64,000 bases of DNA. Source: a virus. Taxonomy: Duplodnaviria > Caudoviricetes. The stretch lies in the IMG/VR virus record IMGVR_UViG_2843675664_000001, positions 5,636-69,635 of that record, one strand, 5' to 3'. Shown here in pieces: positions 61,430 to 61,599 of the stretch. The notes under the pieces are model-generated. The model had not been told where the DNA came from. It saw only the letters and a program-made list of their open reading frames with translations, and did no database searches. Both the position numbers and the translations under genes were made by a program. Every line of letters begins with the position of its first letter. The first letter of the stretch is position 1.

Positions 61430-61599
61430 AACAACAAGGTTACAACAAGGGTCAGAGCTATATAACGGTGAGATTACGGTGAGGGGTAAGGGCGAGATTA
61501 GGGCGAGGAAACGGTAAGATTACGGTAAGGTTTACGGCAAGATTACGGCAAGGAAACCACAAGGTTACTACAAAGTTTTACGCTAAGGTTACACTAAGG
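61430..61599 (+). repeat. Seven 21-bp variant modules, each an 11-bp-period direct repeat
   Basis: Units start at 61430, 61464, 61488, 61510, 61533, 61555 and 61579. Confidence 0.9.

Follow-up and report, generated by a model that had tools for sequence, protein, structure and literature searches.

The array and its setting

The 64-kb window analysed here (64,000 nucleotides of the 69.6-kb provirus record IMGVR_UViG_2843675664_000001; all coordinates are positions within the window) holds a 19.2-kb island on the plus strand (44104-63271), bounded by the 15-bp direct repeat TCGAATCCTGTAGGG at 44104 and 63257. Our subject is an array of seven modules of about 20 bp each (61431-61599), situated in a 1-kb gap of this island between a divergent gene for a 141-amino-acid (aa) protein (60304-60729) and a pair of SSB-like and DUF1643 genes (61740 and 62044). 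Each module consists of a word of 8 to 9 bp, the letters ATT or GTT, the same word again, and a G; the two copies of the word lie 11 bp apart. An earlier note on this DNA, made from the letters alone, had described the stretch 61430-61599, and its sequence, module starts (61431, 61465, 61489, 61511, 61534, 61556, and 61580), and spacings (34, 24, 22, 23, 22, and 24 bp) all stood on re-reading, as did the absence of a single reading frame across the units, the open reading frames (ORFs) at the array being short. The same note held that the halves vary together in most units, and this is exact in five of the seven. The perfect doublets, all on the plus strand, are module 1 (61431-61450; an exact 9-mer doublet of ACAACAAGG with an 11-bp period, reading NNKVTTR), module 2 (61465-61484; ACGGTGAG twice, reading NGEITVR), module 3 (61489-61508; AGGGCGAG twice, reading KGEIRAR), module 4 (61511-61530; ACGGTAAG twice, reading NGKITVR), and module 5 (61534-61553; ACGGCAAG twice, reading (N/Y)GKITAR). 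Imperfect pairs, on the same strand, make up module 6 (61556-61575; ACCACAAG/ACTACAAAG, reading NHKVTTK) and module 7 (61580-61599; ACGCTAAG/ACACTAAG, reading YAKVTLR).

Exact 8-mer repeats at an offset of 11 start at 61431, 61465, 61489, 61511, 61532/4, and 61583, and Tandem Repeats Finder reports periods of 11 and 24 at the array. The whole window contains 11 exact offset-11 doublets of 8-mers, where 100 letter shuffles gave 0.71 on average and 3 at most, and five non-overlapping ones fall in 61430-61600. The eighth copy that the earlier note had thought likely is real: module 8 (63028-63047, plus strand) has the sequence ACGGGGAGGTTACGGGTAGG, pairs ACGGGGAG with ACGGGTAG, with one mismatch between the halves, and lies about 230 bp inside attR. 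The earlier description was too narrow in one respect, since doublets with other words, also with periods of 10 and 12 bp, occur at 61035, 61058, 61198, 61246, and 58446-58704. The array is identical in contigs of two other sequencing runs, and relatives of the island, one of them in a Morganella morganii record, carry zero to four modules at exactly the same spot between conserved anchors; where one relative (L009) has a doublet, another (L010) has a single unit.

Counterparts inside small-terminase genes

The modules recur inside genes for the small terminase subunit (TerS). The pattern ACGGNNAGRTTACGGNNAGG, scanned over viral contigs, gave at least 85 matches among the 80 loci listed, and both variable dinucleotides are equal in 70 of these 85. 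Among the matches listed, 55 fall in frames of 100 aa or longer, of which 52 carry the TerS N-terminal motif: they start LTxKQExF...GNASEAYR... and read ..LL(D/N)NGK(I/V)T(A/V)R.. at the match, which bears out the likeness to the LLDNGKITARI segment of TerS proteins that the earlier note had pointed out. Pfam Terminase_2 matched all ten frames tested, eight of them above the cut-off, and PHROGs assigned them to the terminase small subunit. Within these genes the doublet occupies one fixed codon position, just 3' of the codons for the helix-turn-helix (HTH). Across TerS groups, the distance between the word copies varies and can be 10, 11, or 12 bp. The words themselves vary widely: CGGCAAG, CGGTAAG, CGGGGAG, CCGCAAG, CAACAAG, CATCAAG, CCACAAG, CCCAAAG, CAGCGAG, GGGYGAG, CCCTAAG, and more.

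The second copy of the word stands in a different frame from the first, and therefore the identity of the pair cannot be a requirement of the protein. We examined this in an unbiased sample of TerS genes, picked only by the back-translated peptide GNASEAYRxAY (79 segments, which reduce to 70 unique ones). Within the first 150 nt, the best self-match at offset 11 lies at nt 91-95 in 65 of the 70 unique segments, with scores of 8/8 in 25, 7/8 in 27, 6/8 in 16, and 5/8 in 2. The site has on average 6.93 matches out of 9, compared to 3.79 when the codons are redrawn synonymously (p<=0.05 in 55 of 70), while offsets of 9, 10, 12, and 13 give 1.7 to 2.9 matches at the same site, and elsewhere in the segments at least 8 of 9 matches occur at a frequency of 0.0002. 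The self-match is well beyond the synonymous-codon expectation, and a function at the DNA level, as the earlier note had supposed for the array, is upheld. Other terS genes have doublets of a different period. Of 14 recognisable classical Terminase_2 genes of the host family, 9 carry, at nt 110-115, a 10-bp doublet that scores 7/8 or better. For SPP1, itself a phage of the Terminase_2 family, the first 260 nt of terS contain a single direct repeat of at least 7/8 (offsets 9 to 13), which is found at the homologous codons (..QKPHVRARI..); it has a 10-nt period and lies 18 to 36 nt after the first base of the SPP1 record, which we take to be the pac cut. The location of the doublets, in or beside terS, is that of the pac site of a headful phage.

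The words also follow the protein. That they would co-vary with the TerS HTH was a test put forward with the array, and the residues of the recognition helix do track the core of the word. Counted over the first four residues of the recognition helix in the unbiased sample, whose members are not phylogenetically independent, the core CGGC goes with NRKA in 12 of 12 cases, CGGT with I or V at helix position 2 (7 of 7), CGGG with KR (3 of 3), and CCGC with NRTA (3 of 4). Cleaner evidence comes from two near-identical phages: the terS genes of loci L075 and L090 (585 nt) have all of their 34 differences in nt 84-168, i.e. in the helix and the doublet, and downstream of terS 1481 of 1500 nt are identical; between L138 and L106, a change from R to V in the helix goes with a change from CA to TA in both halves of the doublet. 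Helix and DNA word, being encoded within about 85 nt, would recombine as one unit. We propose tentatively, and at slightly less than even odds, that TerS genes across many phage groups carry a specificity cassette with a readable code of which satellites keep word libraries. In such a code, for instance, C:G would correspond to R at helix position 2 and T:A to I or V, and the libraries would be kept by satellites and other hitchers of several bacterial phyla.

Individual modules can be matched to individual genes. As had been expected of them, different units correspond to terS genes of different phages, modules 2, 4, 5, and 8 being present as exact 20- to 24-mers in different contigs. Module 2 has a 24-nt exact match within one TerS frame (...LLNNGEITVRV...), and module 4 a 23-nt exact match in TerS frames of two loci, with many further TerS genes of the TA/TA type. 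Module 5 is the commonest TerS word; it occurs as exact terS 20-mers and also in three genomes of the host family. Module 8 has a 24-nt exact match in two TerS frames (..DGEVTGRV..) that includes the GG/GT mismatch between its halves, and since this imperfect pair is the same as in natural terS genes, it points to the copying of a working site. In a wastewater contig, by our reconstruction, the slot of module 4 reads ACGGGGAG/ACGGGTAG, the word of module 8, a change that supports a turnover of specificities. For the other modules the likeness is looser. The TerS words closest to module 1 are ACAACAAGGTT/GCTACAAGG (L237) and GTAACAAGGTT/GCAACAAGG (L215), and its longest exact match to a locus outside such islands is only 15 nt. 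Module 3 resembles a TerS gene that likewise reads KGEIRAR (AGGGTGAGATT/AGGGCGAGG; L199), with L234 similar and an exact match of 15 nt. Module 6 is closest to a TerS gene reading NHKVATR (ACCACAAGGTT/GCCACAAGG; L187), and the loci compared contain no exact match to it that reaches 14 nt. Module 7 has only loose TerS counterparts, in three loci, and a 19-nt match in another, non-coding locus.

The neighbouring doublets, also on the plus strand, extend this to other TerS groups. The module at 61198-61249 has the word GGTACGCAG twice with a 12-bp period, and some 20 bp further on an inverted copy, CGCGTACC; TerS genes of phrog_1206 (E 9e-87) agree with it in word and period and in the inverted copy that follows. 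Its pattern gave at least 80 matches; of the 80 listed, from 80 loci, 68 belong to frames of 150 aa or longer, 54 show an EGAIRKRAK-like TerS motif, and 49 have the inverted copy. The carriers include phage HK639, with three copies of GGTACGCA in its TerS gene, and the siphovirus-like prophage that adjoins the island on its left. The TerS gene of this prophage (16775-17377, plus strand; phrog_1206, E 2.3e-86) has GGTACGCA at 16951, 16966, and 16978, with the doublet at 16965, and an inverted CGCGTAC at 17006. The island doublet at 61198 shares both its word (GGTACGCA(G)) and its 12-bp period with this gene, which makes prophage and island a candidate helper-satellite pair within one window; the island thereby carries in cis a match to what would be the packaging recognition site of a helper. 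Two modules have a 10-bp period. The one at 61058-61078 (AACCTGTCAA/AACCTGACATC, in full AACCTGTCAAAACCTGACATC) has a 21-nt exact match in a classical Terminase_2 TerS gene (..ENLSKPDI..; L341), with two further loci near-identical. The one at 61035-61053 (ATGTTGACAA/ATGTTGACA) would read (L)MLTNVDI and is assigned only by its likeness to TerS segments ..LLSKVDI.. and ..LLINVNI.. (L339 and L338), no exact TerS match having been found among the loci compared. A second cluster at 58446-58704 comprises five 10-bp-period doublets (58446, 58484, 58584, 58609, and 58686). The doublet at 58584, ATGCTAACATTTGCTAACGT, occurs in two loci within frames of about 200 aa (..SRMLTFANV..) with TerS-like N-termini, and its G/A variants read ..MITFDNV.. 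or ..MVTFDNV.. in four more; altogether, 6 of 12 viral hits to the word or its variants lie in TerS-like frames, recognised by N-terminal likeness and not by a family search. No TerS match was found among the loci compared for the other four doublets of the cluster, nor a counterpart outside the island for the 11-bp doublet at 61246-61265 (TACCGGACA twice, with a third copy, ACCGGACA, at about 61311, 55 bp further on).

In sum, at least 11 modules of the island equal or approach the in-gene repeats of three or more TerS groups (classical Terminase_2, Terminase_2 of the GNASEAYR..NGKITAR type, and phrog_1206), and the doublet at 58584, with its TerS-like frames, is a further match. Each of the 11 modules that have a TerS counterpart, spread over three places (58.6, 61.0-61.6, and 63.0 kb), is oriented like the terS sense strand. 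There is no flanking terS homology around the modules, which are trimmed exactly to the 20-bp repeat. The modules are copies of in-gene TerS repeats, and these repeats are under DNA-level selection and tied to the recognition helix.

Arrays of this kind are not confined to the island. A pattern of two adjacent modules with free 4-nt words gave 46 matches in 43 genome stretches, where one or two would be expected by chance on a rough estimate, and the free words are equal within the module in 19 and 22 of the 46 matches, respectively, against a chance of 1 in 256. These matches include other kinds of repeat and arrays of a single word (Bacteroidales, Prolixibacteraceae). Multi-word arrays are found in Acinetobacter, Streptococcus cristatus, Ichthyenterobacterium, and Halopseudomonas, in metagenome-assembled genomes (MAGs) of Methylococcales, Campylobacterales, Eubacteriales, and Alphaproteobacteria, and in five viral contigs. 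Those that we inspected adjoin genes for a DUF3987 primase-helicase, a replisome organiser plus loader, or DnaB; on two of the viral array contigs, Pfam matched only DnaB, Fic, and DUF4468. Searches at the DNA level with the array or with 61000-62600 gave no match in E. coli genomes or phage records and, in plasmids, matched only the DUF1643 gene; an E. coli origin of the element is accordingly rejected, and the array is too short and too varied for BLAST.

Known packaging systems and the reading of the array

It is already known that satellites can carry a single pac or cos site copied from a helper, and that pac sites can lie inside terS. Cos-type phage-inducible chromosomal islands (PICIs) and Staphylococcus aureus pathogenicity islands (SaPIs) reportedly carry the cos site of their helper and rely on its TerS and TerL, the cis site being what they have in common with the present island. 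PICIs of E. coli are said to combine one cos site with a protein (Rpp) that retargets TerS; neither an Rpp-like protein nor a cos-like sequence was found in our scans of the island, none of which was aimed at cos. Plasmid iterons and parC-type centromeres are tandem repeats as well, with 11- or 22-bp phasing, and are bound by ring- or filament-forming proteins; the iterons of one element share one word, whereas each island module has its own, found in a phage gene. The PLE satellite of Vibrio cholerae is similar to the island in having a short non-coding copy of the pac of its helper ICP1 and in depending on the helper terminase, but it has one 89-bp stretch, 71% like the intergenic pac of one helper, plus packaging proteins of its own (PMC11417361). 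In contrast, the island has many modules of about 20 bp, with different words and for different TerS families, copied from repeats within terS, and no packaging protein was found among its ORFs scanned. The PICMI satellites resemble the island in their int, alpA, and primase genes and in having neither capsid-remodelling nor terminase genes; they form concatemers that are packaged by the headful into full-size helper capsids, with a pac or cos site not identified by the authors (PMC10803314). In the island, candidate sites are explicit and many.

A recognition signal within or at the start of the TerS gene is also what is described for P22, with its 22-bp pac inside terS, and for SPP1 and SF6, with the direct repeats boxA, boxB, and boxC; the portions of these accounts available to us make no mention of a doublet at a fixed codon position, of co-variation with the helix, or of a cassette swap (PMC9611059, PMC11260489, PMC4737164). 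The pac-like sites of the Salmonella chromosome are mimics outside the phage that raise the packaging and transduction by P22 of the DNA that carries them; a plasmid with such a site was transduced almost 10,000-fold above the empty plasmid (PMC11260489). These sites are single, serve one phage, and are scattered in host genes, while the island has an ordered array of several specificities. HK97 TerS, considered as a model for the repeats, was rejected as its mechanism is different, its target being a 15-bp site close to cos (PMC11331095). Our searches of the literature listed no published array of TerS-site mimics with several specificities and no helix-linked doublet at a fixed position in terS.

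We read the array as a library of mimics of TerS recognition sites that would recruit the packaging machinery of several helper phages, and we give this reading, based on the sequence comparisons above, a probability of about 0.6. The in-gene repeat would be a docking site for neighbouring DNA-binding domains of the TerS ring, one helical turn apart, and docking would mark the phage DNA for packaging, the repeat forming part of pac or the TerS-binding part of cos. The island would be excised and replicated by its own integrase, AlpA-like protein, and primase; with no terminase found among its own ORFs, it would offer its sites to any helper at hand, whose terminase would then begin to package island DNA, and the variety of words would widen the range of usable helpers. 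The identity of the pair within a module would reflect what each TerS reads and not an intrinsic property of island DNA. Possible helpers are at hand, for genomes of the host family hold TerS genes with the words ACGGCAAG, CGGTAAG, CCCTAAG, and CAGCAAG/CAACAAG.

A number of observations speak against such a library. Evidence that TerS would bind the candidate sites specifically, with packaging starting nearby, is indirect and consists of selection at synonymous sites, the association of helix and word, and the cassette swap. The doublet is not universal in the TerS family: 18 of the 70 segments score 6/8 or less, the doublet of locus L096 is broken, Klebsiella phage KpV52 has no doublet of at least 7/8, and in the host family the 11-bp doublet is missing from all 30 best Terminase_2 loci, which turned out to have the 10-bp type in its place (9 of 14 recognisable genes). 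Exact TerS counterparts were not found among the loci compared for modules 1, 6, and 7 and for four of the five doublets at 58446-58704. Of 401 genomes sampled from the host family, only 12 contain close relatives of the TerS of GNASEAYR type. An island of about 19 kb with no capsid-size genes seen would need to be packaged as concatemers, and the zero to four modules of its close relatives show that the array is dispensable and fast-changing. As regards the candidate pair in the window, a blastn-short comparison of the prophage terS region with the island returned chance-level words only; moreover, an HNH gene beside the terminase, such as the prophage has, is presumably typical of cos phages, and if the neighbour is a cos phage, a TerS site alone would not give cos cutting. 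On the biochemical side, the isolated DNA-binding domain of SF6 TerS bound pac weakly and with no preference for the box repeats (PMC4737164), and binding of TerS to pac is described as hard to demonstrate in vitro (PMC9611059).

Much of the evidence would look the same if the modules bound helper TerS for interference or sensing instead of transfer, which is the main rival explanation, though we consider it unlikely. As decoys, the modules would titrate the terminase of an incoming phage or lead it astray, and so lower the phage yield; as a sensor, TerS bound upstream of the SSB-like (61740) and DUF1643 (62044) genes would report late infection. The array does lie some 140 to 300 bp upstream of this co-oriented two-gene unit, beside conserved palindromes and a promoter-like stretch, relatives devoid of modules still keep the flanking genes, and satellites are known to disturb helper packaging (PMC11417361, PMC6739421). 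The common terS sense orientation of all 11 modules, however, is predicted by a direction-dependent use such as packaging and not by a pure sponge, and the similar arrays elsewhere sit in elements with replication modules and no visible adjoining defence gene. Packaging and these other uses are not mutually exclusive.

Far less probable is that the modules are neutral debris of terS recombination, kept as doublets by replication slippage. The varying module number among close relatives would fit, with the step between L010 and L009 corresponding to 11 bp of slippage, and viral contig L509 suggests a route from gene fragments to arrays: at about 9350-9500 on its minus strand, one frame has two partial TerS-like segments in succession (..QASQMITFDNV.. 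and then ..QSSTMISFDKV..), possibly a stage on the way from a terS fragment to a non-coding array. Debris would hardly be cut exactly to the 20-bp repeat, nor would it place at least three unrelated TerS groups side by side, stay identical in contigs of other sequencing runs, retain the imperfect pair of natural terS genes (module 8), or recur as multi-word arrays in several phyla with a word equality far above chance; slippage as the sole cause was dropped once the words were found inside terS genes. Ribbon-helix-helix (RHH) proteins, like plasmid initiators, recognise direct repeats in tandem at a spacing of one or two turns of the helix, and both clusters adjoin genes for small proteins of RHH type or look (Pfam RHH_1 for 58127-58336, and the N-terminus of the 141-aa protein of 60304-60729 by our reading). 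That the doublets are operators or iterons for these island proteins, or a second origin, is nevertheless the most improbable of the explanations: a single protein could not recognise upwards of ten distinct words, the primase has iterons of its own at 53886-54170, distant relatives of the 141-aa gene (L027-L074) have no ACGG-type module within 1.6 kb upstream, and the identity to terS genes of unrelated phages would be left unexplained. The reading as origin iterons was dropped in view of the different words and of the distance of 7.3 kb to the primase iterons. Two other candidates were set aside: integrase arm sites, as the array words are unlike AGGGGGCAT and the array lies 1.7 kb from attR, and Rho utilisation, which was considered on account of the array's C-rich and G-poor minus strand and leaves the identity of the pairs unexplained.

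The interest of the packaging-library reading is that recognition of DNA by TerS becomes testable. A 2022 review calls the recognition of viral DNA by TerS unclear and controversial (PMC9611059), and even for a well-used phage such as ES18 the pac site is reported to be unknown (PMC11260489). A 20-bp doublet at a fixed position in terS that co-varies with the recognition helix offers a concrete candidate site for hundreds of phages, open to test by mutation. Collection of such sites by islands would, if it occurs, account for the packaging of satellites with no packaging genes, such as PICMI-like elements, and would be a novel means by which a parasite of parasites broadens its choice of helpers. 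Pairs of phage and island could then be predicted from sequence, including islands with defence, virulence, or resistance genes, and with a valid TerS code the helper range of an island and the packaging specificity of a phage would be directly legible.

The island, its neighbour, and related elements

The island has the gene content of a satellite, with its own excision and replication genes and no terminase or capsid gene among the ORFs scanned. An integrase gene occupies 44257-45501, followed by an AlpA-like gene (46513-46731), with Rha-like and Ash-like regulators also present, and by a gene for a P4-alpha-like primase-helicase (51056-53803; Zn_Ribbon_Prim, Toprim_3, and DUF927). Directly after the latter, about ten copies of the iteron TGAACCAAC in both orientations (53886-54170) are probably the replication origin of the island. 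Rfam gave four matches, all at 45.6-48.8 kb (C4, isrK, and int-alpA RNA motifs), and none in the array. P4-type features thus include the alpha-like protein, the Ash domain, and the C4-type antisense RNA; no sid-, psu-, or delta-like match appeared among the ORFs scanned, and no search aimed at cos was made. In a PHROGs scan of 20 island ORFs, none matched a head or packaging family (terminase, capsid), a scan that small or novel proteins could escape. The sole tail or head match is a protein of 800 aa (55277-57679) of the tape-measure/transglycosylase families (phrog_2276, E 8e-163; tail category), which is odd for an island. A SecB-like protein of 133 aa (59906-60307; Pfam SecB, E 4.5e-7) follows two small ORFs, a set that could be a chaperone-dependent toxin-antitoxin system. 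In the neighbouring prophage, the TerS gene is preceded by that for an HNH endonuclease (15331-15924) and followed by that for TerL (17379-18860).

The stretch that follows the array (61600-61720) contains the palindromes GCGGGATTATCCCG and TTGGTCA..TGACCAA and a repeated GGAATTAAG..TATCAA stretch; they are kept in relatives, in a different order, and may be operators or a promoter for the SSB-like and DUF1643 genes. Arrays of a single word, with three to six modules (ATTCGAAG or ACCTCAAG), are found on seven contigs of Prolixibacteraceae MAGs, six of them from one MAG, and likewise on five contigs of Bacteroidales or Bacteroidaceae MAGs; these recurring arrays look like a multi-copy element. 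In viral contig L092, a TerS gene has ACGGTAAG twice at 1022, and a non-coding pair of modules, GTGGTAAG/CTGGTAAG and ACGGCAAG twice, lies 9 kb away (10053-10106) and recurs in about ten other contigs.

Towards the ends of the island, doublets of AGGGGGCAT at 63181-63201 (attR) and a similar word near attL (about 44240-44270) are probably arm-type sites of the integrase; more distant relatives have TGGGGGTAC doublets in place of AGGGGGCAT. ARAGORN found no whole tRNA, and the 3' part of one can be read at attL (44060-44125); prophage and island appear to stand in tandem at one tRNA site. Just outside attR, at 63454-63575, a short frame similar to the N-terminus of a P4-type integrase (MALTDVKVRTAKPADKG..LTDGEGMHLYVHANGSK) ends in a stop and looks like the remnant of another island at the same site.

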